A stretch of 64,000 bases of DNA from IMG/VR virus record IMGVR_UViG_2706794662_000007; one strand, given 5' to 3'. Shown here in pieces: positions 11,510 through 63,747 of the stretch (position 1 is the first letter of the stretch; each line of letters opens with the position of its first letter). The DNA is from a virus. Its lineage: Duplodnaviria; Heunggongvirae; Uroviricota; Caudoviricetes. The translations under genes and the position numbers were made by a program. Under the pieces are notes generated by a model. The model ran no database searches. It had not been told where the DNA came from and was given only the letters and a program-made list of their open reading frames with translations.

Positions 11510-11603
11510 GTTGAATCTGCTCCTTTAATCAGGTGGGCTATCCTTGCCCACCATTAAGTATGTAACTACCTATTATTATCGATAAAAATATTTTTTTCCA
11601 TAA

Positions 11604-24903: not shown

Positions 24904-24976
24904 TGATGGAAACTCCTTTTTCCGTTAATTTCACGCATTCATTGCGCTATATTTAAGTATATACTTACCTATTTAT

Positions 24977-27572: not shown

Positions 27573-27606
27573 TTAAGCATAGGTAATTACACACCTATTA
27601 TTTTAG

Positions 27607-33068: not shown

Positions 33069-33123
33069 CCTGCTTCTGTATATATTTAATAAGTTACTTA
33101 TTATTTATATATACAGAAGCAGG
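33069..33123. repeat. ~55-bp palindrome, copy B
   Basis: CCTGCTTCTGTATATATTTAATAAGTTACTTATTATTTATATATACAGAAGCAGG. Confidence 0.75.
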
Positions 33124-36550: not shown

Positions 36551-36632
36551 TTTATTGCTACAATCCACTAAGTAATCACTTACTTATTATAATAGCCAAA
36601 TAACATACAAAAGGCACTAAGGAAAGAGGTTT

Positions 36633-39248: not shown

Positions 39249-39766
39249 GAACATTGGACATCACCTACGGCATACCGGCTGAAGTATGGCCGCGAGACTA
39301 CGAACATGCTGAACGTACCTTGCTCTTCTGGCGGAGTGCAAAATTTCCTGTAAGAGTCACTCTCGAAGACGGCCAAGTGTTTTGCATGTATGTCTACGGG
39401 CTATTGAGCGCAAGAAATAAGCTGAACCTCACACCAGATCCGCTTAGCAACACAAATCGTATAAGGCTCCCTCTTGAGCGCATTAGCACAATTGAGTCGG
39501 GCATAGAAGAGGTTGACACTTCATTCACAGGTCGACTAACGCTAAACAATGAACAGATGGTTAATCAGCCATCACGTCGTGACTTTTTTAAGATATGTCG
39601 TCAGGCTTACCAAAACGGCAAATCTATAAGGGTCTACATGGCAGACGGTCGCGAAATTGAGGGAACGTCAGATGGCGTTGACGCCTGTCTAGTCACACTT
39701 AAGTTGGAAGACGGTAGAAAAATACTTATTTTCTTCGATTGGGTTGAACGAATCCTTCCGTTTTAA
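39245..39766 (+). CDS. hypothetical protein, 173 aa
   Basis: ATGA overlap with preceding secreted-protein gene. Confidence 0.45.
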   Translation: MRTLDITYGIPAEVWPRDYEHAERTLLFWRSAKFPVRVTLEDGQVFCMYVYGLLSARNKLNLTPDPLSNTNRIRLPLERISTIESGIEEVDTSFTGRLTLNNEQMVNQPSRRDFFKICRQAYQNGKSIRVYMADGREIEGTSDGVDACLVTLKLEDGRKILIFFDWVERILPF

Positions 39767-40987: not shown

Positions 40988-41215
40988 ATGGTTATTTTCA
41001 TCTCTGGCGTAAATATCAATAATCATACTCTTGTTTATGATATTGCTGGTTTAGCTGGATATGCTCTAAGTTCTGAAGTGGTTGATGAAACAACGTTTAA
41101 AATAAACATCAATGACGTAGAACATAGAGCGCGCGCAGGAATCAATGAAGCAGATGTTACTTTAATGCTTCAAGAATTTTTAAACGCTGGTTTTAATATT
41201 CGCTTAGAAAAATAA
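40988..41215 (+). CDS. small hypothetical protein, 75 aa
   Basis: ORF with SD TAAGGAG upstream. Confidence 0.35.
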   Translation: MVIFISGVNINNHTLVYDIAGLAGYALSSEVVDETTFKININDVEHRARAGINEADVTLMLQEFLNAGFNIRLEK

Positions 41216-41223
41216 AAACAATA

Positions 41224-41246
41224 GCGCCCATAGTGGGCGCTTTTTT
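41224..41246 (+). terminator. rho-independent terminator
   Basis: GCGCCCA-TAG-TGGGCGC hairpin followed by TTTTTT. Confidence 0.65.
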
Positions 41247-41268
41247 CGTTTCCAATACTCCCACCATA

Positions 41269-41293
41269 ACGCGCCAATGATGGCGCGTTTTTT
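41269..41293 (+). terminator. second tandem terminator-like hairpin
   Basis: CGCGCCAATGATGGCGCG followed by TTTTTT. Confidence 0.55.
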
Positions 41294-41579
41294 ATTGTCT
41301 TTGACTCACTCCAACAACATAAAAATAAGCGCCAAAATAACGCCATAGACGCGCTTTTATATCCTTGCCAGTACATACCCATTACTTAACACATTAACGC
41401 GCTTAAAACGCGTTATATTGCGCTATAGCGCATAGTTAATCATTGGCTTTTAGTCTTGCTATGTGATCCGCGTTTATTTGTCGGCGCGGATCGGCATTTT
41501 GTTTTGTTCCGTATCCGCTCGCGTATTATGTGCGCGTGATTTTTCACATAATCACACCACTTAATCACGTATGCGATTA

Positions 41580-41843
41580 NNNNNNNNNNNNNNNNNNNNN
41601 NNNNNNNNNNNNNNNNNNNNNNNNNNNNNNNNNNNNNNNNNNNNNNNNNNNNNNNNNNNNNNNNNNNNNNNNNNNNNNNNNNNNNNNNNNNNNNNNNNNN
41701 NNNNNNNNNNNNNNNNNNNNNNNNNNNNNNNNNNNNNNNNNNNNNNNNNNNNNNNNNNNNNNNNNNNNNNNNNNNNNNNNNNNNNNNNNNNNNNNNNNNN
41801 NNNNNNNNNNNNNNNNNNNNNNNNNNNNNNNNNNNNNNNNNNN
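41580..41843. other. run of 264 N
   Basis: literal n characters. Confidence 1.
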
Positions 41844-42324
41844 ACACGCCATCAAGGATGTGGATGCGGTTGCTTGCGTATACATTCAGCATAAAGTTAG
41901 CGCAAAACAGTTTCCATGTATCAACGCCAGCGGTATACGTAATGTTTTTGCATTTAATTGCATTGTTGGCGATCCGCATCCCCTGCGATACTGCTTCATC
42001 GTCGGAAAATTTGAACGACGATTGAGTTTTAATCCAGACAGAAATCTGCGTAGCGAACTCAATCAGCTTGGACTGGCAGAATCGCCCGGAGCGCACCGGA
42101 AAGACGAACGTTCCGAATCCAGAATTTACCACATACGCTTTCTCAAATACCCGCGAGTAACGACGATTGCCAATGATGTCGCGTGCAATAATGCATTTTT
42201 CTTGTGCTGACAGTTCTACCGTCTCATTGTCGCGCCATGCACCAAGTACTCGTTTTTCAATGTCAGAGAACGTTACAGCGATATTGCCATGTGCGGGTGC
42301 GTTTACAGTAGCGATAAAATTCAT
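41844..42324 (-). CDS. hypothetical protein (N-terminal 160 aa visible, 3' part masked)
   Basis: ORF from ATG 42324 into N-run; family-1 motif 20 nt upstream. Confidence 0.45.
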
Positions 42325-42528
42325 GATTAATTCCTTATCGTAAATAACAAATTGTTTTCTTGTTGGCGTTAATTATCGTTGTACGAATAAGGCGTCAAAG
42401 TGGAAAGTTGCGGTAGCCGGACGGGAACAGGTGGGTTTGTCGGTTGCCTGGAGGTAAGAGGTTGGTGTTTTTAGCCTGCGGGAAACAGGATGGTCATTTA
42501 AGGCCACCAGCAGTGGTGGCCTTAATAA

Positions 42529-42672
42529 TTATCGACCGATTACGCTAAGGATCTTTTCCTCAACTGATTTGTTGTTGCGACTAAACTGCCTTGCGTATCT
42601 GATGACAGAAGAGGCGTTTTGCTTTCTGACTATCTCGGCTCTTTCCTTCAGGCGTTTCTTGAAATCGCCCAT
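42529..42672 (-). CDS. small basic ORF, 47 aa (below ORF-track threshold)
   Basis: own translation MGDFKKRLKERAEIVRKQNASSVIRYARQFSRNNKSVEEKILSVIGR; followed by hairpin at 42500-42523. Confidence 0.25.
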   Translation of the reverse strand: MGDFKKRLKERAEIVRKQNASSVIRYARQFSRNNKSVEEKILSVIGR

Positions 42673-42674
42673 AT

Positions 42675-43049
42675 TTACCACCAGGCGCAGAAGGTCAGTC
42701 TGTTATTGTGAAAGTCGTGGTTCTTAATCAGCTCTTCCACAAGTTTTTTCAACTCCCCCACGTCATGCCAGTACCCTTCATCGTACTCCTGACTGCCGAA
42801 GAAAAAACCTTCACAGGTAGGTAAGTACTCTTCGCAGTTACTTTCGTTCATGTGCATCAAATGAGCTTTCAGAGCACAAATGTCATTCATCGTTAATTCT
42901 AAAAGCTCACAATTTTTGACTTCACCTACGTTGCGTTCCATCCACCCAAAGAGAGCATTGAACTTACGGAAGTAAGCAACCTTCTTTCTGGATGCATCGT
43001 TATTCAGATCGTTTTTTGGTTGCGTCTCAATGTAGATATCAAGTCCCAT
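42675..43049 (-). CDS. hypothetical protein, 124 aa (Cys-containing)
   Basis: ORF track. Confidence 0.45.
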   Translation of the reverse strand: MGLDIYIETQPKNDLNNDASRKKVAYFRKFNALFGWMERNVGEVKNCELLELTMNDICALKAHLMHMNESNCEEYLPTCEGFFFGSQEYDEGYWHDVGELKKLVEELIKNHDFHNNRLTFCAWW

Positions 43050-43167
43050 GATGGTTTCCTTATCAAGTTGCTTTCAGTGAAAGCATTTTCACAAATCAGA
43101 TAAGGCAGAAAACAAATTGTTATCGGGCATAAGAAAATGGCGCGGTTTACGCGCCATTCAAAGAGGA

Positions 43168-43575
43168 TTAAGCGAATACGCTTTCAGGGATTAAGGTGTC
43201 AGCAGGAATGCCGGAGGTAATGCGCAGACCATACTGACCAATCCAGGTAGTGTTAGTGTTCAGACTGGAAGCGAATACGGTGTTAACCATATTCATCATG
43301 GTTTCAAACACCTCTTTATTCACCTTACGGAAGTAACTTTCAATTTTCAACAACAACGGGTCCGTTGCATCAAAAATGGACTGATATTGCGCCTCATATT
43401 CCCCGCCTGATGTATCTCCTTTACGCACAATAGTACTTGCCTGAACTTCAGTTCCAGTTTCGGTGTTGTACGTAACGACGGTGATTTTAGCTACATTCTT
43501 ACCTTCGGCGCTTTCTGAAGCATAGTAGACATCAACTGTCAGGTTTTCTCGTTTAACGCTCATATCACTCTCCAT
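43168..43575 (-). CDS. hypothetical protein, 135 aa
   Basis: ORF track. Confidence 0.45.
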   Translation of the reverse strand: MESDMSVKRENLTVDVYYASESAEGKNVAKITVVTYNTETGTEVQASTIVRKGDTSGGEYEAQYQSIFDATDPLLLKIESYFRKVNKEVFETMMNMVNTVFASSLNTNTTWIGQYGLRITSGIPADTLIPESVFA

Positions 43576-43627
43576 AGTGTCTTGGTTATTTTTCTATTTT
43601 ATAGACATAGGTATGTACTTACAATAC

Positions 43628-43652
43628 AAAAAACCCCGTAAGGATGGCGGGG
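43628..43652 (-). terminator. rho-independent terminator
   Basis: CCCCG...CGGGG hairpin with U-tract on minus strand. Confidence 0.6.
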
Positions 43653-43688
43653 CTGTCGTACTGTCGACTAATTACCACTTGCACATTA

Positions 43689-44000
43689 TCAGGCTATTGC
43701 CATCACTGATGCTCTCTGAATCTCTTGCTGGGCCACGCGGTTAACTTCCATCAAAGCCAGTTCGAGCTGATGTTCCGGCCACATTCTTTGAAATGCCATC
43801 CAGCCTTTTCCACGCTGGCGACGAACATTCATTACATAACGAGTAAAGGTGTTTTTATCGAAAGACACCGCTGTTTCACGGAACAGACGAATAGAGGTTC
43901 CATTGGCAACGATGTCCAGCAAAGTTAATTGAGCAACCAGTGCAGGCTTCTCTTTTCTCTTCTGGTCTTTGTCCAGACCAAGAACCAATGATTTTTTCAT
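43689..44000 (-). CDS. hypothetical protein, ~103 aa (start at ATG 44000)
   Basis: track ORF began at TTG inside family-1 motif; ATG 44000 more plausible. Confidence 0.4.
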   Translation of the reverse strand: MKKSLVLGLDKDQKRKEKPALVAQLTLLDIVANGTSIRLFRETAVSFDKNTFTRYVMNVRRQRGKGWMAFQRMWPEHQLELALMEVNRVAQQEIQRASVMAIA

Positions 44001-44154
44001 CACAACTCCGTAAACAACTTGTTTTCTCAATGGCGTAAATAATACCAGTAAGAAAACGGCTACAAAGCATATTGATCAGGCGCATGAGCGATATGCAGGT
44101 TCTTCCCTGCGGCTACAGATGAAGTTAAGCCAGCAATGCTGGCTTTGGTTGGGC

Positions 44155-44484
44155 TTACGCGAATATCGCAAGGAAGTCCTGAACGTCCCAATGCTGGACG
44201 AGGTGAAGATAGACCTTAGAAATCACGTCATTTTCGCTATCGCATGTGAAGTAGTACTTCTGGCTGCGGTTGTATGTGTCCACACAAAATTCGCTCATAT
44301 CCATAAAGTCAGCATCTTCACCCATGTCGCAAATCATCAAAGCAGGTGCGTCATCACGAGTCATCAGCTCCAGCACCCATCTTGAATTAATCAGAGTGGA
44401 AGACCAACCTTCCAGCTCATAAAACTGGTCAAACTCTTTTTGAGTCAATTTCTTAATTTGGTTGATGTCGATATTTGCAAACAT
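44155..44484 (-). CDS. hypothetical protein, ~109 aa (start at ATG 44484 with AAGGA SD)
   Basis: ORF track adjusted; family-1 motif 14 nt upstream. Confidence 0.4.
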   Translation of the reverse strand: MFANIDINQIKKLTQKEFDQFYELEGWSSTLINSRWVLELMTRDDAPALMICDMGEDADFMDMSEFCVDTYNRSQKYYFTCDSENDVISKVYLHLVQHWDVQDFLAIFA

Positions 44485-44622
44485 AAAGCAATCCTTAAAC
44501 ATGTTGTTTTCTGAATTACGTAAACAATACCAGTAAGAAAACGGCCACAAAGTATATCGTTACGGTGCTGCGCTGCCCCGAGGTTAATAGCGACAAAAGC
44601 CACCGTGCTGGTGGCCTCACTC

Positions 44623-44841
44623 TTAATCTTGGTCGTCCGGGAACTCGCTGTGTACCGCGCCCACCAGCTCCCGCTTTTCATCTTCACTCAGCAGGTGCCA
44701 GATATCCTTCCCTTTGGGCGATTCCCCTTCTGCCGGGACGAACGACCACAACTTGCGGTACAACTCCGGCCCCACTGCATCCAGACACTCAGCCAGGGAA
44801 TCCACGCCCCACACCTCAACCGTCACAGGCATCTTAATCAT
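44623..44841 (-). CDS. hypothetical protein, 72 aa
   Basis: ORF track. Confidence 0.35.
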   Translation of the reverse strand: MIKMPVTVEVWGVDSLAECLDAVGPELYRKLWSFVPAEGESPKGKDIWHLLSEDEKRELVGAVHSEFPDDQD

Positions 44842-45226
44842 CTCTTCATCCTCACTTCGTTTCTATAACGTCTAAATATGCTGTTTACTTGTTGGTGTTA
44901 TTATCGCAATAAGATAAAGGCGAAAAAGGATTTTATGTCGGGAAAGCCAGGCTGGGCAGTGAATATCCGGGAACGACACGAGAGCCAGTATTTACGATAT
45001 TCTGCTCTACGCGCGCCGCGGGGCTGGTGGGTAGAATAATCCTCTCCCCGAAAACCTACTGAAATCGATTGTGACCCGCTGGCTGTCTGGCACAATTACG
45101 CTGTATCTGGCATTCAGAGGGAATCCAGCGGTAAGCAAGTCAGCCTGCACGTGAGCGCCTCTCTTCTTCCCGCACATTACAGGTGGGTAGCTGCAACTCT
45201 CTCTCTCTCGCTATACCGGTACGCCG

Positions 45227-45362
45227 CCGTTCCAGAACCGGCATCGAGCCTTTTCCCGAAATCCACACAGGCAACTCGACCGTTTCCCTGAAAATCCCCA
45301 GCCGTTCCCCCGAAGGCAACCCAGCCGTTTCTGTAGCTGGATGCAACCTTTTCCCTGTATGG
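45227..45362. repeat. iteron-like array: six direct repeats of CCGTT(T)CC-type units at ~22-bp spacing
   Basis: copies near 45227, 45249, 45280, 45302, 45325, 45347 read directly; inside ORF-poor region. Confidence 0.5.
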
Positions 45363-46412
45363 ACCGAAGGCTGACCGTAGGGGGTGTTACGGGGGATAAA
45401 ATCAGGAGTTGAATAAATACGAAAAAGGAGGCGACCCCCCTCCTTCCCTCTCCACTTATACATACCTGGCTTCTTCGCTATACATGTTGTGTTTTATCTG
45501 TCTCAACCTCTCTATAGGCGTTAATGCTCACTCCTTCCAGAATGTTCTATACGGCGACTATTTCTGTTGGTGAATTGGGTGTGTTGTTTTCTCTGTCGGT
45601 GTATGTGGTTTCGTTAGTTTTGCGGTGGTTCTTCTATGGGGGTGTTCTCGTCGTTTTGGTGATTGTTCTTCTCCGTGTATGGAGTAATGGCAGGTGGGCG
45701 ATTGCTTTCGTTATTGTGTTTGAGTTGTTTGTCTGGAGTGTGTGAAGGCTTTTGTAGTTATTCGTGTATTGGGTAATGGCGTTTCCCGTGATTGTTATGT
45801 TTCGTGTCTTTTGGGATTGAGAGAAACCTTGCGGTTACAGGCTTCGTTAGGGTTTCAGCGGTTCAGGTGTTTCTTCGCTGTTTGGGTAATGGCGTGTCGT
45901 GGGTATCGCGCGTATGAATGTTTTCGGATTGCCTGTGAAAGTTAGGTTGGTTGTCCGGTAGCCTGGGGAGAAGAGGTGGGTCTTTTCGGTAGCCTGCCAT
46001 AAAGAGGTTGGTTGTTTTGGGTAATGGCATATGTGTTATTTGGTTGTTTTGTTATGCCTGAAAATAAGTTGTTTATATGGTTGTGTAACGCAACGGGAGC
46101 GATTTTGAGCGTGTGTTTTTGTTGGTAGTGTGTTGAGTCGTCTGTGGTGAAATTTGGACGCTGTGGCGCTATCTGCTGCGTAGAATTACGGGTATAAGAA
46201 GTGATGTGTGATAACGTCAATTTTTTAGACCAAATCGGGAGAAAGCGTTGATGTTTCGTTGATCTGTTATTTAGTTGTTTTCTTATTGGTATAAACAACC
46301 ATAACCTATTGATATTTAATGATGTGATTGCTGGTATGGGAGGGTAGTAGTGGCGATCAACGGGTTCTTATAGAAAAGAATCAAATTGTGACCGCCATTA
46401 TCAACGGTTTGA

Positions 46413-46598
46413 TTAGATGAGATGGTCTAATTCATCATCTATCATGGCTTTGACGCTGGAGTCGTTCACTCCATATTTATTTATGAGCTGTTTCAGCTCT
46501 GTCGAAAACTGAAGGTAGATATCGTGAGCGTTTTTCACTGTAGGTTCAACGCCACTCATTTCAAGCGCCTTTAGTAGATATGAGTCTTCTTTAAGCAT
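46413..46598 (-). CDS. small hypothetical protein, 61 aa
   Basis: ORF track. Confidence 0.3.
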   Translation of the reverse strand: MLKEDSYLLKALEMSGVEPTVKNAHDIYLQFSTELKQLINKYGVNDSSVKAMIDDELDHLI

Positions 46599-46634
46599 AA
46601 ATTCTCCGTTATCTAGTATGAAGCGATTGCCGGA

Positions 46635-46934
46635 TTACCATTGCCAGCACTCAAGCCCTTCAACGACCGGTGCGCCACAATCAAAATGTACAGAGTTAAA
46701 GCCTACATCAAGTACTTTCTGAATGTTCGCAATCGCACCCTCGGATATACCATATCGACGCAACTCATCTTTCCAGTCATCGTCCTGTAACCCGGCGTGG
46801 ACAATGCAACCGTACTCAATTTGTGAAACCCAATCCAGCTCATTGCTTGCGATCATGAATCGGCGAGCATCTTCCTCTGATGTATGAGATGAACTGATCA
46901 ATGCCACCTGGTAGGCTTGGGTAATGTTCAACAT
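46635..46934 (-). CDS. hypothetical protein, 99 aa
   Basis: ORF track; two family-1 motif copies upstream. Confidence 0.4.
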   Translation of the reverse strand: MLNITQAYQVALISSSHTSEEDARRFMIASNELDWVSQIEYGCIVHAGLQDDDWKDELRRYGISEGAIANIQKVLDVGFNSVHFDCGAPVVEGLECWQW

Positions 46935-46988
46935 TTCAACTACTCCAAAACAAGTTGTTTTCTTATGTGGCTTATTATCTCAATCAAC

Positions 46989-47011
46989 AAAAGGTAGAAA
47001 ACAAATTGTTT
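46989..47011. repeat. 23-bp element AAAAGGTAGAAAACAAATTGTTT, left copy of exact direct repeat flanking metG-apbC
   Basis: identical 23-mer at 50832-50854. Confidence 0.8.
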
Positions 47012-47047
47012 TAGGGCTTGTGTAAATCAGGAGGGATTGTGTCTATA

Positions 47048-47075
47048 TGAAAATGCCCGGCGTGTTGCCGGGCAT
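47048..47075 (-). terminator. metG rho-independent terminator
   Basis: GCCCGGC-GTGTT-GCCGGGC hairpin plus U-tract on minus strand. Confidence 0.6.
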
Positions 47076-47095
47076 TGCGAAGAGAGGTTGTTTAA

Positions 47096-49034
47096 TTACT
47101 TAACCTGGTGGCCAGGTTTAGCACCAGCATCCGGGCTTAACAGGAAGATATCTTTCCCGCCAGGACCGGCAGCCATCACCATGCCTTCAGAGATACCGAA
47201 GCGCATTTTACGTGGTGCCAGGTTAGCCACCATAATGGTGTGACGACCAATCAGTGCCTGTGGATCTGGATAAGCGGAACGGATGCCTGAGAAGACATTA
47301 CGCTTTTCACCACCGAGATCCAGCGTCAGGCGAAGCAGTTTGTCAGAACCTTCGACAAACTCCGCGTTTTCAATCAGCGCCACACGCAGGTCAACTTTGG
47401 CGAAGTCGTCAAAGGTGATGGTTTCCTGAATCGGTTCGTCAGCCAGTGGGCCAGTTACCGGTGCAGCTGTGGCTTTCACTTCTTCTTTGGATGCTTCCAC
47501 CAGTGCTTCCACCTGTTTCATATCGATACGGTTATACAGTGCCTTGAACGGATTCACTTTATGGCCCAGAAGCGGTTGCTGGATACCATCCCAGGTCAGT
47601 TCTGTATTCAGGAATGCTTCTGCACGTTCAGTCAGTTTCGGCAGTACCGGTTTCAGGTACGTCATCAGCACGCGGAACAGGTTAATGCCCATAGAGCAAA
47701 TCGCCTGCAGATCTGCATCGCGACCTTCCTGCTTCGCCACCACCCACGGAGCCTGTTCATCGACATAGCGATTAGCCAGGTCAGCCAATGCCATGATTTC
47801 ACGGATAGCTTTACCAAATTCGCGGCTTTCCCATGCTTCGCCAATCACTTCAGCGGCATCAGTAAAGGTTTTGTACAGTTGCGGGTCAGCCAGTTCGCTT
47901 GTCAGCACGCCGTCAAAACGCTTGTTGATAAAGCCTGCATTACGGGAGGCCAGGTTAACCACTTTGTTCACGATATCGGCATTCACGCGCTGAACGAAAT
48001 CTTCCAGGTTGAGATCGATATCATCAATGCGCGAAGAGAGTTTCGCAGTGTAGTAGTAACGCAGGCTGTCAGCGTCAAAATGATTCAGCCAGGTGCTGGC
48101 TTTAATAAAGGTGCCGCGAGACTTGGACATCTTCGCGCCGTTCACCGTCACATAGCCGTGAACAAACAGGTTGGTCGGCTTGCGGAAGTTGCTGCCTTCC
48201 AGCATGGCAGGCCAGAACAGACTGTGGAAGTAAACGATATCTTTGCCGATGAAGTGGTACAGCTCGGCGGTGGAGTCTTTCTTCCAGTATTCGTCGAAGC
48301 TTACGCTGTCGCCGCGCTTGTCGCACAGATTCTTGAAAGAACCCATGTAGCCAATCGGCGCGTCCAGCCAGACGTAGAAATATTTGCCCGGCGCGTTCGN
48401 NNNNNNNNNNNNNNNNNNNNNNNNNNNNNNNNNNNNNNNNNNNNNNNNNNNNNNNNNNNNNNNNNNNNNNNNNNNNNNNNNNNNNNNNNNNNNNNNNNNN
48501 NNNNNNNNNNNNNNNNNNNNNNNNNNNNNNNNNNNNNNNNNNNNNNNNNNNNNNNNNNNNNNNNNNNNNNNNNNNNNNNNNNNNNNNNNNNNNNNNNNNN
48601 NNNNNNNNNNNNNNNNNNNNNNNNNNNNNNNNNNNNNNNNNNNNNNNNNNNNNNNNNNNNNNNNNNNNNNNNNNNNNNNNNNNNNNNNNNNNNNNNNNNN
48701 NNNNNNNNNNNNNNNNNNNNNNNNNNNNCTCTTCGCTGTGCGTCGAGTGATAGTTGTCATAGCTGATGTTAAAGCCTGCGAAATCAGTCTGATGTTCCTG
48801 ACTCATTTCGCCAATCATCTGTTCCGGTGTGATACCAAGCTGCTGTGCTTTCAGCATGATTGGCGTACCGTGGGCATCGTCGGCACAGATGAAATTAACC
48901 TCGTGGCCGCGCATTCGCTGGTAACGAACCCAGACATCAGCCTGGATGTGCTCCAGCATATGGCCGAGGTGGATTGAGCCGTTAGCGTACGGCAGCGCGC
49001 ACGTCACCAGAATTTTCTTCGCGACTTGGGTCAT
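47096..49034 (-). CDS. metG: methionine--tRNA ligase (interrupted by N-run; frame differs on the two sides of the mask)
   Basis: N-terminus [29 protein letters not shown] and C-terminus ...[24 protein letters not shown] recognised as enterobacterial MetRS. Confidence 0.9.
48390..48728. other. run of 339 N inside metG
   Basis: literal n characters. Confidence 1.
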
Positions 49035-49191
49035 AGTAGGCATTACTTCTTTGTAGTGAAAAGGGGCTTGATAGTAACAAAATGGCCTTATGTCTGCCAT
49101 GTGATAACAGCATTTCTCATAAATGATTAAATGTCGTAGCTGGAGTACACTACAAGGCGACAATTGCGCAAATTAAAATAAAGGAGACGGG

Positions 49192-50292
49192 ATGAGCGAG
49201 TCCAAATCGCCGGATGCCCTGAGAGCAATGGTAGCCGGTACGCTGGCTAATTTTCAGCACCCAACCCTGAAACACAACTTGACTACGCTTAAAGCGTTAC
49301 ACCATGTTGCGTTGATGGATGACACACTGCATGTCGAACTAATCATGCCTTTCGTGTGGAATAAGCCTTTTGAAGACCTGAAAGAGCAATGTAGTGGTGA
49401 TCTGCTCCGTATCACTGGCGCAAAGGCTATTGACTGGAAGCTGTCGTACAACATTGCCACGCTTAAGCGCGTCAAAAACCAACCAGGCATTAATGGCGTT
49501 AAGAACATTATCGCCGTCAGCTCAGGCAAGGGCGGCGTGGGTAAATCCTCCACAGCAGTAAACTTGGCACTGGCTTTGGCTGCTGAAGGTGCGAAAGTTG
49601 GTATTTTGGATGCCGATATCTATGGTCCATCAATTCCAACCATGCTGGGCGCGGAAAACCAACGTCCAACCTCACCGGACGGTACTCACATGGCACCTAT
49701 CATGTCTCATGGCCTGGCAACCAACTCTATTGGTTATCTGGTCACCGATGACAATGCAATGGTGTGGCGTGGACCGATGGCGAGCAAGGCGCTGATGCAG
49801 ATGTTGCAGGAAACACTGTGGCCTGATCTGGACTATCTCGTTCTCGATATGCCACCGGGCACTGGTGATATTCAATTGACGCTGGCGCAGAACATTCCTG
49901 TAACTGGTGCGGTTGTGGTAACTACGCCGCAAGACATCGCGCTGATCGATGCGAAGAAAGGCATTGTGATGTTCGAAAAAGTCGAAGTGCCGGTACTGGG
50001 TATCGTTGAAAACATGAGTGTGCATATTTGCAGTAACTGCGGTCATCACGAGCCAATTTTTGGCACCGGTGGAGCACAGAAACTGGCCGAGAAATACAAC
50101 ACGCAGTTGTTAGGCCAAATGCCACTTCATATCTCTCTTCGTGAAGATCTGGATAACGGAACACCAACCGTTATTAGTCGTCCAGATAGCGAATTTACGG
50201 CTATTTATCGTGACCTCGCAGATCGCGTTGCTGCCCAAATGTATTGGCAAGGTGAAGTAATACCTGGCGAAATCGCATTCCGCGCAGTGTGA
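49192..50292 (+). CDS. apbC: iron-sulfur cluster carrier protein ApbC/Mrp
   Basis: 366 aa, Walker A SGKGGVGKS, CxxC near C-terminus; divergent from metG as in enterobacterial chromosomes. Confidence 0.9.
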   Translation: MSESKSPDALRAMVAGTLANFQHPTLKHNLTTLKALHHVALMDDTLHVELIMPFVWNKPFEDLKEQCSGDLLRITGAKAIDWKLSYNIATLKRVKNQPGINGVKNIIAVSSGKGGVGKSSTAVNLALALAAEGAKVGILDADIYGPSIPTMLGAENQRPTSPDGTHMAPIMSHGLATNSIGYLVTDDNAMVWRGPMASKALMQMLQETLWPDLDYLVLDMPPGTGDIQLTLAQNIPVTGAVVVTTPQDIALIDAKKGIVMFEKVEVPVLGIVENMSVHICSNCGHHEPIFGTGGAQKLAEKYNTQLLGQMPLHISLREDLDNGTPTVISRPDSEFTAIYRDLADRVAAQMYWQGEVIPGEIAFRAV

Positions 50293-50298
50293 TAAAAA

Positions 50299-50317
50299 GG
50301 CGGTGCATTGCACCGCC
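50299..50317. terminator. hairpin GGCGGTGCATTGCACCGCC; U-tract only on minus strand
   Basis: read directly; lies between apbC stop and UmuD'-like gene stop. Confidence 0.45.
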
Positions 50318-50329
50318 TAATCAGTTCTC

Positions 50330-50719
50330 CTACATCACAGGACAATCATCAAACTCGCCACTTCTTGCGTCGTTGATAATGTGAGTGATCACACCAAACA
50401 CGGCATTGCTGCCCGTGCATCCATCGTCATCCTTTGGCAATGCTTCCTTCTTACCGGTTCTTAAATCCTCCAGATGCTGACGTGGAGACTTCCGGTATCT
50501 TTTTACGCGATATTCCCCATCCAGAGCGCATACAAGCAGAGAACCATCAACCGGGGTAAGTGAGGAATCAACCACCAGCAATGCACCCTGTAATATTCCC
50601 TCACGATGATGACTATCAGCTGCTCTCATGAAGTAGGTCGCTGAAGGATGTCTAATTATCTGCTGATCAAGAGAAATACGGCTCTCAGCATAATCCGCCG
50701 CAGGAGAAGGGAAGCCCAT
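50330..50719 (-). CDS. UmuD'-like S24 peptidase-fold protein (starts at the position equivalent to the UmuD self-cleavage site)
   Basis: MGFPSPAADY...HPSATYF matches UmuD from Gly25 onward; Ser and Lys of dyad retained (AADS, RVKR). Confidence 0.75.
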   Translation of the reverse strand: MGFPSPAADYAESRISLDQQIIRHPSATYFMRAADSHHREGILQGALLVVDSSLTPVDGSLLVCALDGEYRVKRYRKSPRQHLEDLRTGKKEALPKDDDGCTGSNAVFGVITHIINDARSGEFDDCPVM

Positions 50720-50735
50720 AGCGTTTTGCCCTCAA

Positions 50736-50755
50736 TACTGTTCATTTACACAGTA
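50736..50755. promoter_or_regulatory. LexA (SOS) box TACTGTTCATTTACACAGTA
   Basis: perfect CTGT-N8-ACAG core 17-36 nt upstream of UmuD'-like start; in-frame TGA upstream excludes longer ORF. Confidence 0.7.
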
Positions 50756-50831
50756 TACATGAAAGAAGCTCACTCAGTGCAACTGATCGGTACATAGCAC
50801 CAGACAAAGGAACGTTATTTTCTCGAACAAG

Positions 50832-50854
50832 AAAAGGTAGAAAACAAATTGTTT
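50832..50854. repeat. 23-bp element AAAAGGTAGAAAACAAATTGTTT, right copy of direct repeat, followed by hairpin 50855-50875
   Basis: identical to 46989-47011. Confidence 0.8.
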
Positions 50855-50904
50855 AAGGCCACAACTAGTGGCCTTAATGGAGAAGGGATGCTTATTGGCT
50901 ATGG

Positions 50905-51423
50905 CTAAAAATCAAANNNNNNNNNNNNNNNNNNNNNNNNNNNNNNNNNNNNNNNNNNNNNNNNNNNNNNNNNNNNNNNNNNNNNNNNNNNNNNNNNNNN
51001 NNNNNNNNNNNNNNNNNNNNNNNNNNNNNNNNNNNNNNNNNNNNNNNNNNNNNNNNNNNNNNNNNNNNNNNNNNNNNNNNNNNNNNNNNNNNNNNNNNNN
51101 NNNNNNNNNNNNNNNNNNNNNNNNNNNNNNNNNNNNNNNNNNNNNNNNNNNNNNNNNNNNNNNNNNNNNTTTAAAGGAAGATAGGTTCCCCATAGTAGCT
51201 GTCTGCCGTGCGCTCGTGTGAAATACCGGGCCATCTTCGGATTGCTATGCTGCTTAGGAGCGCCTGGTCTGTATGTCTGATACCCGGCCAACATCCCATC
51301 AAACCTGTATAGAGGGAATGTAACAACTCCTTCGCTTTCATCGATCCACTGTCTATATGGATGCACATCATAGCGGTAGTTACGAGTTAGCAAATGAGCT
51401 TCCAGCTTTCCAAATTTAGTCAT
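50905..51423 (-). CDS. hypothetical protein interrupted by N-run
   Basis: N-terminal part MTKFGKLEAHLLTRNYRYDVHPYRQWIDESEG... visible; start at internal Met. Confidence 0.4.
   Translation of the reverse strand: MTKFGKLEAHLLTRNYRYDVHPYRQWIDESEGVVTFPLYRFDGMLAGYQTYRPGAPKQHSNPKMARYFTRAHGRQLLWGTYLPLXXXXXXXXXXXXXXXXXXXXXXXXXXXXXXXXXXXXXXXXXXXXXXXXXXXXXXXXXXXXXXXXXXXXXXXXXXXXXXXXXXXXXFDF
50917..51169. other. run of 253 N
   Basis: literal n characters. Confidence 1.
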
Positions 51424-51436
51424 AACTTCGCATCCC

Positions 51437-52291
51437 TCATAACACTTCCCATTTATCACCATATTTCTCCATAGCTCTTAGCCAATAAACATGGCCACTA
51501 GGCATAGTGATGTGAGGCTCGCCAAACTCTTCTCCATGTACATCAAAGATGTCCCCAACAGAAAATTGGGGGATTTCTGTTCCGTTTTCACCTATATGTG
51601 TAATTCGTATACGTTTCGGTTGGGATTGTCCACCTTTGAGCGAGTTGTTCACTGCTCTGGCAATTTTCTCCCGCAATTGCTGCGTTCCGTGATACGTAAC
51701 CGCAATATCCCGCAACTCATTCACTAGTTCTCGAATTTGGTGATCTTTAAGCTCATTATTTGGGTGATTGGTAACAACTCTGGTTAATTCCCCATTGTCT
51801 TTTGCTCTTACGTATGCAGCTCTTGTGCATTCGCCCCATGTATTACCGCCTACATTAACTTCGTAGATTAGGCTGGACTTATCTGTCAATTCGGAACAAA
51901 TACGGGCCGTGGTCTGGCAACTAGAGCATTCGCAGTTATCGCGGAAACCGTGGTCTACTGGCTTCGGTTTAACATCATCAACTTTTTCTACCCTATTGGA
52001 ATTTAAATACTTCGAAGCCTTGCTATGCCAATCGCTGGTTTTAGGATCTTGTCCATCCATCAAACGCCAGGCTTCAGCTATTAACTCATAACTAGTGACT
52101 GTAGCTTCCTGCGCATCACCAATAAGTCGTGTAATCTCTCTTTCAAGCCGACCGCCTAACTCCGTTTTAGTGCAATGTTCTGACCAATCGCCAGTCTCAA
52201 GAAGCGCGAGAATGCTTAAAATATCGTCCAATAGAACGGTAGTATTATCGACTTCCTTCTGAAACTCACCGGCTACTGATTTATGCATCAT
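51437..52291 (-). CDS. hypothetical protein, 284 aa (Cys cluster CECSSC)
   Basis: ORF track. Confidence 0.5.
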   Translation of the reverse strand: MMHKSVAGEFQKEVDNTTVLLDDILSILALLETGDWSEHCTKTELGGRLEREITRLIGDAQEATVTSYELIAEAWRLMDGQDPKTSDWHSKASKYLNSNRVEKVDDVKPKPVDHGFRDNCECSSCQTTARICSELTDKSSLIYEVNVGGNTWGECTRAAYVRAKDNGELTRVVTNHPNNELKDHQIRELVNELRDIAVTYHGTQQLREKIARAVNNSLKGGQSQPKRIRITHIGENGTEIPQFSVGDIFDVHGEEFGEPHITMPSGHVYWLRAMEKYGDKWEVL

Positions 52292-52569
52292 TCGTCATCC
52301 TCATCCGAGTCATCCTCATCACAGGATGAGAGTAGTGGGTTAGTCATTCGCCCTACTTGAGTGGCGTAGCAACGCCGACAGAGATTGCGCAGCACACTGT
52401 ATATTTCGAACATCTCGGTTCGTTCATCGCCAACATCAAGCTCAGATGCTATAGCGTGGCATTCAGTCGCGAGAGCCGATATTTTCTGAAATAACTCTGC
52501 TTTATTCACTCTTCGACTCCTGCGGAGGTTCTGGTAGCGGCATCCAGTGAGTTGCTTGCTCAATACCAT
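52288..52569 (-). CDS. small hypothetical protein with acidic C-terminus (start uncertain)
   Basis: ORF track; 5' part overlaps upstream gene so true start likely internal. Confidence 0.3.
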   Translation of the reverse strand: MVLSKQLTGCRYQNLRRSRRVNKAELFQKISALATECHAIASELDVGDERTEMFEIYSVLRNLCRRCYATQVGRMTNPLLSSCDEDDSDEDDE

Positions 52570-53119
52570 TACCCGGCTTAATCGTTACATCTCCGCGCCG
52601 AAAGGTGATTCCGGTATAGCGTGCGGAGCATATTAGCGGTTCAACCAGAGAGCTATCGAAATTCACCGAAATAAGCACGTTCTGGCCCTTTTCAGGCATT
52701 CGCTCACTACAGCTTATCCAACCATCCGGAGTTACCGGATGGGGTCCAGCGAACTCGGGAATGTCAGGACCTTTTCTGATAGCTTTAGCCAGATCCAGCG
52801 GGTCATCGTAAAGCCAGTCGCCAGTTTGTGGGTGATTTGCTTCTGCAAGCTGCGCAGCCCATTCAAGACCATCTTTTTGACCTTGGAGATAATCAAGCGG
52901 CAACTCTTCATGATTACTTGCAGGTTCTGCACTATCAGCTTCGCGCCGCTTCTGTAGCTCTGCTGCCATCGCTCTCACGACTTCAACTGGTGCCCTTGCA
53001 GCAAACTCTATGTTGGTGATCAGCTCATTAAGATATTGCTCGCCTGGATACTGTTTCTTATCGGTTATAGTGGTCATATCACTCTCCTTTTCCCTGAAGC
53101 ATAGCAGCGCGGCAGGCAT
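52502..53119 (-). CDS. DUF551-like prophage protein
   Basis: C-terminal ATHWMPLPEPP signature segment. Confidence 0.5.
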   Translation of the reverse strand: MPAALLCFREKESDMTTITDKKQYPGEQYLNELITNIEFAARAPVEVVRAMAAELQKRREADSAEPASNHEELPLDYLQGQKDGLEWAAQLAEANHPQTGDWLYDDPLDLAKAIRKGPDIPEFAGPHPVTPDGWISCSERMPEKGQNVLISVNFDSSLVEPLICSARYTGITFRRGDVTIKPGNGIEQATHWMPLPEPPQESKSE

Positions 53120-53465
53120 TCCAGCCTCTCACCTCTGCAATAGCGGCAACAGCATCAACCGCGTACATGCTAAGAGGATTAGGCATTGGTTTTTCTTCCG
53201 GTACTACTGGAACGGGTGGAGCGGCGTAGACCTCAATAATTCCATTATCAATAGGCCATTCTCCATCCTTGAGGTAGTCACTTGTGCCGTCAACTTGCTG
53301 TTCTGCAATGTGGAATGCACCTATTGGTTTTGCTTCCAGCGATGCCAGAGCAATTCGTGCCAGTTCTTCCGCTTCTTCTGCTGGCAGTACAACGTTGCTA
53401 CCAGGTCCGTATGTTTCGCGCCACTGTTTGATTGTCAGTAGTCGCTCTTTGGTAATAGTGGTCAT
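53079..53465 (-). CDS. Ea22-like early-region protein candidate
   Basis: 128 aa, N-terminus MTTITKERLL shared with neighbouring ORFs. Confidence 0.4.
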   Translation of the reverse strand: MTTITKERLLTIKQWRETYGPGSNVVLPAEEAEELARIALASLEAKPIGAFHIAEQQVDGTSDYLKDGEWPIDNGIIEVYAAPPVPVVPEEKPMPNPLSMYAVDAVAAIAEVRGWNACRAAMLQGKGE

Positions 53466-53489
53466 GTGTTACTCCTTAACCCGCAGTGC

Positions 53490-53739
53490 NNNNNNNNNNN
53501 NNNNNNNNNNNNNNNNNNNNNNNNNNNNNNNNNNNNNNNNNNNNNNNNNNNNNNNNNNNNNNNNNNNNNNNNNNNNNNNNNNNNNNNNNNNNNNNNNNNN
53601 NNNNNNNNNNNNNNNNNNNNNNNNNNNNNNNNNNNNNNNNNNNNNNNNNNNNNNNNNNNNNNNNNNNNNNNNNNNNNNNNNNNNNNNNNNNNNNNNNNNN
53701 NNNNNNNNNNNNNNNNNNNNNNNNNNNNNNNNNNNNNNN
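53490..53739. other. run of 250 N
   Basis: literal n characters. Confidence 1.
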
Positions 53740-53749
53740 AGTTGCCATA

Positions 53750-54271
53750 TCACTCTCCTTTGATGCGAATGCCTGCTGCAATGCTGTTTATGATGCTGTC
53801 AGTGCATGGAGTAGAAAGCTGGGCATCTCCAGCAATTTTCATGACCTCAACATCCGCATATCGAATACCGAGGTGTATCAGACCGGCTATACCTGACTTA
53901 AGTCGAACATTTTCCATAAACAGATCTTTTTCCCGCTGTTTAGCGGCTTCCAACTCCATCGACAATTTTTCCAACTGCTCTTTATGCTTCTTGTATTCCT
54001 GATACGCGTGCCAAGACTGACCTTTGCGCACACTATCAGTGATATCAGCAACCTGCTCCGGTGTTAGCGTGGTCAGTGGCTGTGCTGGAAAAATCATCAC
54101 TTTCCCGGCATCCCAATCAAAACCCGCCTGAATTGACTGAACCTCAACTGATGGTGTTGAACCGATGCGACCAGGCGAATGAACAACGATCGTTACATCC
54201 ATATCGCGACGATGGCTGTGGTTGTTGGACAAAATACGATTCACCAACTCAGAAAATTTGGAAAATTTCAT
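53750..54271 (-). CDS. Ea22-like protein (start at MKFSKF)
   Basis: C-terminus AAGIRIKGE identical to 54593..55123 product. Confidence 0.45.
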
Positions 54272-54591
54272 GCTGATCCCTCTTTCTCTCCCCGGATAAT
54301 TCTGTTGCACACATCCACACACTCGTCGCAGATGAAAACGGCGTCCCCAGCAATTAACTTTTTGACGGCGTACTGGGATTTGTTGCAGAAGCTGCAACAA
54401 AGTGTTCGCCTGACTGATAAGGATGGAGCGCCAGATGTCAGCCGCTCCATATCGTTCTTGCGACGCAATATCACACGGCTGAACTCAACCAGTTTCTCCG
54501 GGGATATCTCCTCCTCCGTAGCAAGCGCCTCTAATCGTTCGAGTATGTGGAAGGCTTTTTTCTGGGTAATTGCAGAATGCGATGTGGTCAT
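54268..54591 (-). CDS. ClpX-type C4 zinc-finger protein (domain-only)
   Basis: [34 protein letters not shown] parallels the ClpX N-terminal zinc-binding domain. Confidence 0.55.
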
Positions 54592-54592
54592 C

Positions 54593-55123
54593 TCACTCTC
54601 CTTTGATGCGAATGCCAGCGGCGCGGGAATCATTCCATCGCTTTACTTCTTCACGAATTACGTCAATGCATTCTTTCGAATCCATTAGGTAATCTTCATC
54701 AAAAAGACGTTCCTGTTCGTTTTCTATCGCAACAATGATTGCTTCAACTAACTTTTGTGCCTGAGAATCACTTTCTAACTCTGCTATGCGCTTACTTCCA
54801 TCCGAGATAACGCCCTCGTAATACTCACGCTGCTCGTTGAGTTTTGATTTTGCCAACTCCAGTTGTTTTGTTAGTTCCGCAATACGGCAAACATCGTTGA
54901 TACGCGTTTCCTCTAATGCGTTGATCTCATCCAGTAGTGCCAGCACGGTTTCTGGTCCGGCCAGAAATTTGAAGGCGTTGAGGGCATCAATATCAACACC
55001 GCTATCTTTAAGTTCCTGTTCACTTAACAAGTCATCATCAGCTGGCAACATTAACAGGCGTTCCATTGCTGGAATTGCACGTTCCGCCACCTCACGCAGT
55101 GCCTGGTAATTAATTTCGCTCAC
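54593..55123 (-). CDS. Ea22-like coiled-coil protein
   Basis: 176 aa; C-terminus AAGIRIKGE; stop-start junction duplicated at 53745. Confidence 0.45.
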
Positions 55124-55364
55124 TGGCTGCCTCCTGCTTTTCTGCCTTCAACACCATGCGAGAACCATCATCCAGCTCCCACACTATCTCACCACCTTCA
55201 GCCATGACCAGTTGCCACACCAATTGAGCAGCCTCATTGGTAACATCACGACCTGGATCATTGCCAACGCGCATACGTCCACCTTCAACATCGCGCATTT
55301 TTGCCAGCATGATAGTTTTTGATAGCGGTGAAAAACCAAGCTGTAGTCGTGCTGAATTACTCAC
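55110..55364 (-). CDS. small hypothetical protein, 84 aa
   Basis: ORF track. Confidence 0.4.
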   Translation of the reverse strand: MSNSARLQLGFSPLSKTIMLAKMRDVEGGRMRVGNDPGRDVTNEAAQLVWQLVMAEGGEIVWELDDGSRMVLKAEKQEAASERN

Positions 55365-55903
55365 TGGTTGCCTCCTTTGCGAAGCTGGGCAGCAAAGTCA
55401 ACTAACCACTCAGTCATTTCAACCTTCCCTACCAGGTCTGAACCAGGGTGCATACAGCAATCACTCTGCGCCGCTTTGAAATCCTTATACTCATATTCTT
55501 GGGCCACCAGATTTTTTGCAGCTTCTATAGCAGCATCCACCCCCTGCGCACGTACTTCAGCCAGAAAAGCATCGGTGGCTGGAGTCTCCGTTAATTCGCT
55601 AACCCAATTATCTCCGTGTTCCTCGGCACACATCGCATCGAATGCTCGCTCAGATTCTTTCAGGGCTGCATTCTCCGCCGCTAATGCGTCTCTCTGCGCC
55701 CGCAACTTCTCAATTTCGGCAGCCATGTAGTAACCAACCATAGCGAAGACGGCAAAAGAGTTGTCTGCCTCATCAGGCGACACTGAGGCCATTAGCAGAC
55801 CATCGTAATAATCGTGACTCCCATTGGTGATCGCCACCTCATAGGAGTCGTGGTTCTCACGCTTGTGAATGAGAACTACGGGGTTTTCGATTTTGTTACT
55901 CAT
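55361..55903 (-). CDS. Ea22-like protein, 180 aa
   Basis: ORF track; coiled-coil centre. Confidence 0.45.
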   Translation of the reverse strand: MSNKIENPVVLIHKRENHDSYEVAITNGSHDYYDGLLMASVSPDEADNSFAVFAMVGYYMAAEIEKLRAQRDALAAENAALKESERAFDAMCAEEHGDNWVSELTETPATDAFLAEVRAQGVDAAIEAAKNLVAQEYEYKDFKAAQSDCCMHPGSDLVGKVEMTEWLVDFAAQLRKGGNQ

Positions 55904-56041
55904 GTGTTTTTCTCTTCTTTGCTGTTACATAAGCACTACCAAGTGCTGGTTTATTTTCACAAATAAGAAAATGTAGAAAACAATTTATTTAAGGCCACAA
56001 CTTATGGCCTTTATTTATTCATGCCGAAGGATTTGTAGCGT

Positions 56042-56422
56042 CTAATTGCCGTATAAAATGGGGTGAGGTGCTTGCCAGTAGGCTCCACCGGTCCATGTGA
56101 ACCCCATGCGAATAAGAGTGTTTATTGCGGCTTTGGTAGACTCCGATTCGACACTGGCTTTACGAAACTCTTGAACCTCTTTCGCCAACCTGTATGTAAT
56201 TGTGCAGGGGACGATTGCAGCCCAGCCTTTCTCATGACTGTTAATGACCATCTGGATGTGACCATCCAGAATAGGTTGATTAGACATGTTATTGAAAATG
56301 TCTGCCTGTTTTTGAATGTGAAGAAAAAGCCTTGCCAGCTCCATTTGCTCACTACGAGACAAGGGATTATCAAGAGGGCTTTTTGCAAAAGCGGCTATAC
56401 GCTGTGCGTCAATGCCAAACAT
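56042..56422 (-). CDS. hypothetical protein, 126 aa
   Basis: ORF track. Confidence 0.45.
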   Translation of the reverse strand: MFGIDAQRIAAFAKSPLDNPLSRSEQMELARLFLHIQKQADIFNNMSNQPILDGHIQMVINSHEKGWAAIVPCTITYRLAKEVQEFRKASVESESTKAAINTLIRMGFTWTGGAYWQAPHPILYGN

Positions 56423-63686: not shown

Positions 63687-63747
63687 AGCCTGCTTCCGTA
63701 TATTAATAATTAATATGTAGTTATTTATATATATACAGAAGCAGGCT
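63687..63747. repeat. ~60-bp palindrome, copy C
   Basis: AGCCTGCTTCCGTATAT...ATATATACAGAAGCAGGCT. Confidence 0.75.

Follow-up and report, generated by a model that had tools for sequence, protein, structure and literature searches.

Hairpins and 64-nt units at the ends of minus-strand genes

The stretch of DNA analysed here (the window, 64,000 nt of the IMG/VR virus record IMGVR_UViG_2706794662_000007) carries three related hairpins, each located just past a gene of the minus strand. The 15 kb around the hairpins are 99.7% identical to Escherichia phage CMS-2020a and 96–97% identical to two others, PhiR41_1 and Cyrano. These phages are E. coli SSU5-like phage-plasmids of about 108 kb, and the window represents an element of this kind. 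Almost all genes between 41.4 and 64 kb are carried by the minus strand, and 'sense' designates the minus strand wherever hairpins and the units that contain them are described. Six runs of N, of 250–329 nt each, mask the window (18165–18414, 41580–41843, 48400–48728, 50917–51169, 53490–53739 and 57311–57565). Because N stretches distort them, open reading frame (ORF) calls are unreliable across masked runs: the listed ORF 50905..51462 is 50892..51455 in the unmasked CMS-2020a genome, the listed end being an artefact of the N run.

The inverted repeats announced by the original prediction were all present at its three sites (energies are predicted for the sense strand unless stated otherwise):

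42500..42523, minus strand: hairpin 1, the longer variant, with a 4-nt loop; plus strand AAGGCCACCA-GCAG-TGGTGGCCTT, sense AAGGCCACCA-CUGC-UGGUGGCCUU; stem of 10 bp, or 12 bp with the flanking TT/AA; -23.6 kcal/mol (about -20 to -24), z-score -4.7

50855..50875, minus strand: hairpin 2, a perfect stem; plus strand AAGGCCAC-AACTA-GTGGCCTT, sense AAGGCCAC-UAGUU-GUGGCCUU; stem of 8–10 bp; -16.2 kcal/mol, z-score -4.0

55991..56011, minus strand: hairpin 3; plus strand AAGGCCAC-AACTT-ATGGCCTT, sense AAGGCCAU-AAGUU-GUGGCCUU; pair 8 is C.A on the plus strand and U.G on the minus strand, so that the closing U.G pair exists on the sense strand only; -12.1 kcal/mol sense versus -9.2 kcal/mol antisense, z-score -2.1

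Hairpin 1 lies 5 nt past the stop of a 47-amino acid (aa) ORF (42529–42672, minus strand), hairpin 2 lies 16 nt past the true stop (50892–50894) of a 187-aa gene of the ea module, and hairpin 3 lies 30 nt past the stop (56042–56044) of the Eaa-like gene 56042–56422. The pattern with a 5-nt loop, searched with up to two mismatches, had two matches compared with 0.01 expected from shuffles, and a relaxed search of the complete unmasked 109-kb CMS-2020a genome returned exactly three copies, the same ones. No Rfam family matched the hairpins at a permissive threshold between 41000 and 58000, the only hits being weak small RNA-like matches to canonical terminators at 41209–41296. Scans of sequence collections with the bare hairpin pattern, or with a 14-base motif pattern, had unrelated contigs among the matches listed and were uninformative, because in a collection of this size a 16-base pattern is expected by chance about as often (rough estimate); a single scan of genome contigs gave only two contigs from metagenome-assembled genomes, both unrelated.

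Hairpins 2 and 3 are held in a 64-nt direct repeat (50815–50878 and 55951–56014, 86% identity), in which the hairpin is followed by a palindrome and by a promoter-like part. The repeat has two further copies in the window, operator-promoter units that lack this hairpin. The features concerned are:

50815..50878, minus strand: composite copy 2; in sense order hairpin, palindrome, 19 nt, CGAGAAAAT (extended -10-like; plus strand 50817–50825), junction

55951..56014, minus strand: composite copy 3; in sense order hairpin, palindrome, 19 nt, TGTGAAAAT (plus strand 55953–55961), junction

50842..50854: family-1 palindrome AAACAAATTGTTT, touching hairpin 2 without a gap; putative operator

55978..55990: family-1 palindrome AAACAATTTATTT, touching hairpin 3 without a gap; putative operator

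42345..42357: of the family-1 palindromes, the one nearest to hairpin 1; a -10-like hexamer, GATAAT, lies just upstream of it and the gene 41844–42324 downstream

46972..47035, minus strand: operator-promoter unit without the AAGGCCAC hairpin

43083..43146, minus strand: operator-promoter unit without the AAGGCCAC hairpin

47052..47076, minus strand: canonical intrinsic terminator after the methionyl-tRNA synthetase gene (metRS), AAUGCCCGGC-AACAC-GCCGGGCAUU then UUCAUAU; same slot, upstream of the 46972–47035 unit

43135..43159, minus strand: canonical intrinsic terminator, AAUGGCGCG-UAAAC-CGCGCCAUU then UUCUUAU; 13 nt upstream of the palindrome in the 43083–43146 unit

Both units that lack the hairpin are thus preceded by canonical terminators. 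A hairpin of terminator type accordingly stands at the start of each of the four units, and the hairpin occupies a terminator slot. Beyond TGnGAAAAT, copies 2 and 3 continue into the leader of the next gene. The spacing of the composite is free of indels in every relative, and the TGnGAAAAT region and the palindrome are the best-conserved parts of the unit. The proposal that each hairpin is adjacent to a family-1 motif holds for copies 2 and 3, where AAACAAnTTGTTT abuts the hairpin without a gap; it fails for copy 1, whose nearest motif is 143 nt away, and the palindrome at 42345–42357 belongs to the next transcription unit and not to that of hairpin 1.

The 13-bp palindrome AGAAAACAAnTTGTTTTCT occurs in the window at 15 sites with at most one mismatch, compared with 0.41 expected, from 1296 to 61281 (among them 4532, 32992/33017, 44012, 44497, 46948, 60540 and 61269). 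It precedes many minus-strand genes, in two orientation classes. In the first, that of the 64-nt units, its centre lies about 38 nt upstream of the start implied by TGnGAAAAT; in the second (for example 4532, 42345, 44012, 46948, 60540 and 61269), it lies 8–12 nt downstream of a -10-like hexamer and 10–25 nt upstream of the ribosome-binding site. Both placements, as predicted, suit a repressor, an operator function of the palindrome is plausible, and AGAAAACAAnTTGTTTTCT is a candidate global operator of early or accessory genes. An antisense promoter (TTCACA-17-AACAAT) was considered for the conserved TGTGAA and was not favoured: it would read straight into the hairpin, with no gene downstream. 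We found no study in the literature of promoters, operators, terminators or regulation in the SSU5 family; a palindromic site common to at least 14 predicted promoters would offer a first hypothesis for early-gene regulation in these elements.

We favour, as the rather probable explanation of these features, a stem-loop that ends sense transcripts and that has been fused, at copies 2 and 3, into a reusable terminator-operator-promoter linker. In the fused form, the hairpin would be joined to the regulatory region of the next unit, composed of the 13-bp palindrome (a putative repressor site near -38) and of the extended -10-like TGnGAAAAT; hairpin, palindrome and TGnGAAAAT together would make up the 64-nt linker.

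Conservation of base-pairing in relatives

Relatives were collected through flanking-gene anchors and not through the hairpin itself, through a pattern for the promoter part, and from plasmid records. Pairing was kept in E. coli, Salmonella, Enterobacter, Klebsiella and Cronobacter, with loops that differ in length and in sequence. For the composite hairpin (14 distinct sequences), 98.2% of the cells of the alignment were paired and double changes affected two of the eight pairs; the Klebsiella version, AAGGCTAT-ATCA-ATAGCCTT, has two fully compensated pairs. For hairpin 1 (13 distinct sequences), 94.6% of cells were paired and double changes affected five of the ten pairs; none of 500 shuffles reached the observed covariation score, and registers slid along the alignment were only 21–51% paired. 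The series C-G, U.G, U-A at pair 8 occurs in both hairpin families. Base-pairing is conserved in these alignments and, judged from the pattern of changes, the hairpin is selected as a structure.

These changes bear on two other explanations. The inverted repeat, a perfect palindrome of 21–24 bp that at two sites stands next to another palindrome, might be a duplex DNA operator for a dimeric regulator. The spacing of its half-sites is however variable instead of fixed (3–6 unpaired nt, stems of 8 or 10 bp), and its arms change compensatorily instead of keeping their sequence. Compensatory changes together with drifting loops rule out a protein-binding palindrome recognized as duplex DNA, and we consider this reading extremely unlikely. 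It could also be argued that the hairpins have no present function and are relics copied along with their neighbours: there are only three copies, two of them within a longer duplicated segment, and the copy found in P1-like phage-plasmids is degraded on the sense strand. The maintenance of pairing over five genera, with compensatory changes and drifting loops, argues against a functionless relic, as does the retention of the hairpin past different upstream genes, and makes this explanation highly improbable.

Loops compared between the window and its relatives are in some cases exact reverse complements of each other, either from one otherwise collinear sequence to another or between two copies carried by one genome (TAGTT/AACTA, CTGC/GCAG and GCAT/ATGC; loci L312 and L343, and L274 of Cyrano at 3500–3523 and 3970–3995). 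As read from these alignments, the flipped loops indicate small inversions at the palindrome. In one contig (IMGVR_UViG_2671181056_000013, locus L306), about 20 nt upstream of the match at 644–668, the left arm and the loop of hairpin 2 are replaced by an unrelated sequence, joined through an N that falls exactly in the loop; a join made during assembly is more probable here than a natural breakpoint.

A proposed role at transcript ends

We propose that the AAGGCCAC...GTGGCCTT stem-loop acts as an RNA element of minus-strand transcripts and closes the transcription unit: it would form just past the stop codon and would mark or stabilise the 3' end. An action at the RNA level, by termination or stabilisation, is what we infer from the position of the hairpins, their compensatory changes, the slot that they occupy and the drop of RNA across them in Cyrano (see below). 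The same four observations uphold one part of the earlier 'terminator plus operator' proposal, namely that transcription units end in a structured element. A terminator in the strict intrinsic sense finds no support in the sequence. As in intrinsic terminators, a stable GC-rich stem-loop lies downstream of a coding region and co-directional with it, past the stop codon and in the slot that U-tract terminators occupy before other units; the difference is the A-rich stretch found directly past the stem in place of the U-tract, which should start within 0–2 nt (the 8 nt past the stems are AAACAAUU, AAAUAAAU and AAAUGACC).

The hairpins might nevertheless be efficient Rho-independent terminators of sense transcripts that use the T-rich half of the family-1 palindrome as their U-tract. 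GC-rich stems of -12 to -24 kcal/mol directly past stop codons, the slot shared with canonical terminators and the fall of Cyrano RNA across the hairpins would all be expected of such terminators, and a U-rich tail, UUUGUUUUCU, starts 6 nt past the stem. A lenient terminator scan passed one copy on the minus strand, copy 2, by means of Ts located 5–10 nt downstream; on the plus strand it flagged copy 3. However, the first 6 nt past the stem are AAACAA or AAAUAA, and hairpin 1 is devoid of any U-rich tail (AAAUGACCAUCC). Properly tailed canonical terminators are present in the same element, which means that the genome as such does not account for the difference. We regard intrinsic termination as a doubtful alternative.

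A second class of 3' ends provides a closer likeness for hairpin 1. In E. coli, Rho-dependent 3' ends carry stable stem-loops without a U-tract, with an excess of C over G downstream (Dar and Sorek 2018, PMC6061677). The hairpins of the window are likewise stable, terminator-sized stem-loops directly past a coding region, with no U-rich sequence following, and hairpin 1 also has C over G downstream, in the following region:

42380..42499, minus strand: C-rich, G-poor untranslated stretch directly past hairpin 1 (46 C and 16 G in 120 nt), which includes two repeat units and is a candidate site of Rho loading

In the first 100 nt past hairpin 1, C minus G is +28, which is the 99.95th percentile of the window. 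Hairpin 1 would probably act in the Rho-dependent style, its U-less stem-loop blocking 3' exonucleases next to a C-rich Rho-loading stretch, and hairpins 2 and 3 would probably be weak or partial terminators with the A/U-rich tail AAACAAUUUGUUUUCU.

Expression data come from Cyrano, a relative, in the form of gene-level RNA-seq that is near its detection floor and possibly not strand-specific; normalised counts in LB were 5.7 for CYRAN_108, 57.9 for CYRAN_109, then, past a hairpin, 6.7 for CYRAN_110 and, past another hairpin, 25.5 for CYRAN_111 (PMC9928086 table S1). The drop from CYRAN_109 to CYRAN_110 was 2- to 16-fold over all five conditions and roughly 9-fold in LB (PMC9928086 table S1). 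Across the composite of copy 3, counts went from 10.1 (CYRAN_92) to 6.3 (CYRAN_93), near the floor of 5 (PMC9928086 table S1).

Several observations weigh against a transcript-end function as we describe it. Only 2, 2 and 1 U are found in the first 8 nt past the three stems, compared with 4–5 for the canonical terminators of the window. Hairpins 2 and 3, past which C minus G over 100 nt is +1 and -2, have no C-rich stretch and differ in this from Rho-dependent 3' ends. The C-rich repeats past hairpin 1 may serve otherwise, being perhaps protein-binding and not Rho-loading, and they are also kept in a divergent promoter region of SSU5 that has no co-directional gene upstream. The limits of the Cyrano data given above count in the same direction, and CYRAN_109 is about 10-fold above the gene 2 nt upstream of it as well as above the gene past the hairpin. 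The excess over the upstream gene suggests a promoter of its own or a stable, hairpin-protected 3' fragment.

The strand on which the element acts is a related question. Most one-sided stem changes leave a G.U-compatible pair in the sense RNA, and a fold advantage of at least 2.5 kcal/mol favours the sense RNA in eleven variants and the antisense RNA in two; this corresponds to about 8 versus 2 independent events (roughly p = 0.05), a statistically weak bias that is only suggestive. The P1-like copy shows the reverse, its sense strand having a C.A mismatch where the antisense strand has a wobble; both points also belong on the negative side of our reading. An element active on the plus strand, or in both directions, would stop antisense or convergent transcripts, and it would account for the P1-like copy, which is turned towards the convergent gene upf93.6 and remains paired on that strand only, as well as for copy 3, flagged on the plus strand by the scan, where its tail UAUUUAUU is U-rich. 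That tail is absent at copy 2 (AAUGGAG) and is not conserved in SSU5 or Klebsiella, no plus-strand genes or conserved promoters are aimed at the three sites, and most one-sided stem changes break the pairing of the plus strand. Plus-strand action is therefore, in our opinion, quite unlikely.

Termination assisted by a repressor, with a roadblock at the abutting palindrome, was considered and, on geometry, rejected as the main model, because the active centre of the stalled polymerase would be inside the DNA that encodes the hairpin, with the 3' arm not yet emerged.

The C-rich sequence past hairpin 1 has a counterpart in the window. Pairs of a tandem unit of about 30 nt (sense AAAAnACCnACCTCTT-N6-8-CAGGCnACCGnnAA) are found at 42437–42500 and at 45952–46018; the unit could be a Rho-loading region, a protein-binding repeat or leader RNA. 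The sense strand of 45780–46300, around the second pair, is among the most G-poor of the window; a coding sequence is annotated there in relatives (a TTG-start, low-complexity ORF of 118 aa), but the region looks non-coding. The product of the 47-aa ORF upstream of hairpin 1 (42529–42672, minus strand; MGDFKKRLKERAEIVRKQ...), the homologue of CYRAN_109, is basic and has no Pfam match.

Mosaic breakpoints, cassettes and neighbouring features

Comparison of related elements strongly supported the claim that the unit marks module boundaries, as seen in three sets of data: loci that share the upstream gene, the edge of homology with P1-like elements, and cassettes. First, 28 loci anchored on the Eaa-like gene are near-identical through ...TTTGTGAAAATAA and then continue into three alternative leaders and genes, the point of divergence lying immediately past ...GAAAATAA; the downstream module is eae-type, as in the window, in 17 loci, of an HD-domain type, as in SSU5, in 10, and of another kind in the last one. 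Second, homology with P1-like phage-plasmids begins at the composite edge, 50811, and covers only the composite and the ea gene upstream. P1-like carriers (P7, SJ46 and P1 variants) accounted for 22 of 40 contigs, and convergent genes, upf93.6/lxr, follow the unit in them. In SSU5, the units are islands of homology (about 85% identity) between flanks that cannot be aligned. The breakpoint is not always at the same place: in PhiR41_1 copy 2 itself is interrupted, the break separating its palindrome from its -10-like part, and in Cronobacter the hairpin and the palindrome alone are retained. The 64-nt unit matched 432 plasmid records.

The third set of data concerns hairpin 1, whose locus is, in the sequences compared, a hotspot for cassettes. 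In the window, no extra cassette accompanies the 47-aa gene and the hairpin. In Cyrano and in 10 viral contigs, the 47-aa gene and its hairpin precede a promoter-like region and the CYRAN_110 gene, past which stands a second hairpin, the two hairpins being 471 bp apart; in another locus (L327), a 310-aa gene lies between two hairpins that are 1069 bp apart. Cassettes between hairpins are thus of 0, 471 or 1069 bp, each with its own promoter-like region. A -10-like hexamer and a full or half family-1 site lie upstream of the CYRAN_110 and L327 genes, where promoters are predicted. In more distant relatives, a CYRAN_110-like gene ends in a covarying hairpin. The segment duplicated in Cyrano is about 36 bp long (GTCATTT-hairpin-AAT).

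At copies 2 and 3, the two 64-nt composites form direct repeats on either side of the ea module of the window (50.9–55.9 kb). A single-crossover insertion within the shared unit would be expected to leave this footprint; it would be accounted for just as well by double crossovers or by selection for functional joints. No deletion derivative joining composite 3 directly to the umuD leader was found among the 28 loci.

Several places, in more than one phage-plasmid, carry the linker or its hairpin, which therefore provides short homology where rejoining leaves both neighbours functional; because homology sits at these functional joints, cassettes would be exchanged, inserted or lost at the edges of the linker. 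The unit coincides with mosaic breakpoints and may have a causal role in recombination; the breakpoints are compatible with the recombination hotspot that had been suggested. Against such a role, breakpoints at regulatory joints can arise by selection alone.

A dedicated cassette-exchange system, attC-like or based on another site-specific or single-strand recombinase, could also act on the hairpin and cause the mosaicism. Promoter-gene-hairpin cassettes of varied content between hairpin copies would be in keeping with it, as would the loops that are sometimes flipped relative to their flanks (CTGC versus GCAG, TAGTT versus AACTA) and the presence of the unit in two unrelated families of phage-plasmids. 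Integron attC sites are similar in that hairpins, imperfect in attC, stand at the 3' end of each cassette of an array. They differ in that the stems are perfect here, with neither extrahelical bases nor R and L boxes, that breakpoints are variable, and that no integrase or other recombinase is found in the annotated flanks of relatives. The breakpoints of copies 2 and 3 are at the unit's promoter end, about 45 nt from the hairpin, PhiR41_1 having its break within the unit, and ordinary homologous recombination on repeats of 36–64 bp suffices. We consider a dedicated exchange site very unlikely. A bolder version of our own proposal is improbable too: the linker would be a dedicated 'socket' in which the hairpin, perhaps extruded as single-stranded DNA or as a cruciform, and the 45-nt promoter part actively target recombination between the SSU5-like and P1-like families and place cassettes under the resident repressor, an integron-like economy without an integrase. 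The flipped loops and the arrays of genes plus hairpins at the hairpin 1 locus are compatible with it.

The terminator-operator-promoter linker belongs to a type of boundary well known from phage mosaics, rather than being a novel mechanism, and is conceptually another case of the known mosaic logic of phages. Morons of lambdoid phages are reportedly accessory genes flanked by a promoter and a terminator of their own (Juhala et al. 2000; Hendrix et al.). In Cyrano and L327, the extra gene, with its promoter-like region (a predicted promoter) and its terminal hairpin between conserved neighbours, has this organization. Successive cassettes here differ from morons by reusing one hairpin sequence and, owing to the palindromic site shared by their promoters, by appearing commonly controlled and not autonomous. 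Conserved boundary or linker sequences are also said to be part of the modular theory of lambdoid phage evolution (Susskind and Botstein 1978; Clark et al. 2001). The likeness is in short conserved intergenic stretches that flank modules, with breakpoints at their edges, and that are common to otherwise unrelated genomes, here SSU5-like and P1-like; the difference is that these are phage-plasmids and that the linker has a defined terminator-operator-promoter anatomy. CYRAN_109 is counted among the moron-like expressed genes of Cyrano in the LF82 paper (PMC9928086).

Enterobacteriaceae commonly harbour SSU5-like and P1-like phage-plasmids, which vary in their accessory genes. A reusable intergenic unit would give a practical marker to delimit cassettes, and would explain how one ea-type module sits in two unrelated phage-plasmid backbones. 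The 64-nt linker common to the two families and the candidate global early-gene operator are useful by-products of the analysis.

Several neighbouring genes deserve mention. A LexA box (TACTGTTCATTTACACAGTA, 50737–50756) lies upstream of the UmuD-like gene 50330–50719; the Cyrano homologue of this gene, CYRAN_98, had the top RNA level among the Cyrano genes inspected, with a rise in macrophages from log2 of about 7 to about 12. A MinD/Mrp-like ATPase gene is present at 49192–50292 (plus strand), and its Cyrano counterpart, CYRAN_99, is among the few genes expressed in the lysogen (92 versus a floor of 5). The metRS gene aboard this phage-plasmid is located at 47096–49163 (minus strand). On ten flanking proteins, Pfam matched only the UmuD-like S24 protein and an FljA-like repressor, with no pointer to a protein that would bind the palindrome. 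The FljA-like protein (39245–39766, plus strand), a phase-1 flagellin repressor carried here by an E. coli phage-plasmid, is full-length (Flag1_repress, E = 1.4e-68).

Two other families of repeats were observed in the window. Three copies of a 43-nt AT-rich repeat (CCTGCTTCCGTATATATTTAATAAGTTACTTATTATTTATATA) lie about 30 kb apart (2177–2219, 33069–33111 and 63689–63731), two of them being 98% and 77% identical to the reference copy. A 32-nt repeat (TAAGTAnnTAnnTACCTATTATTAT...) is found at 11555–11586, 24954–24985, 27580–27611 and 36569–36600, just upstream of large structural genes or operons of the minus strand, and is a candidate late-gene promoter motif.

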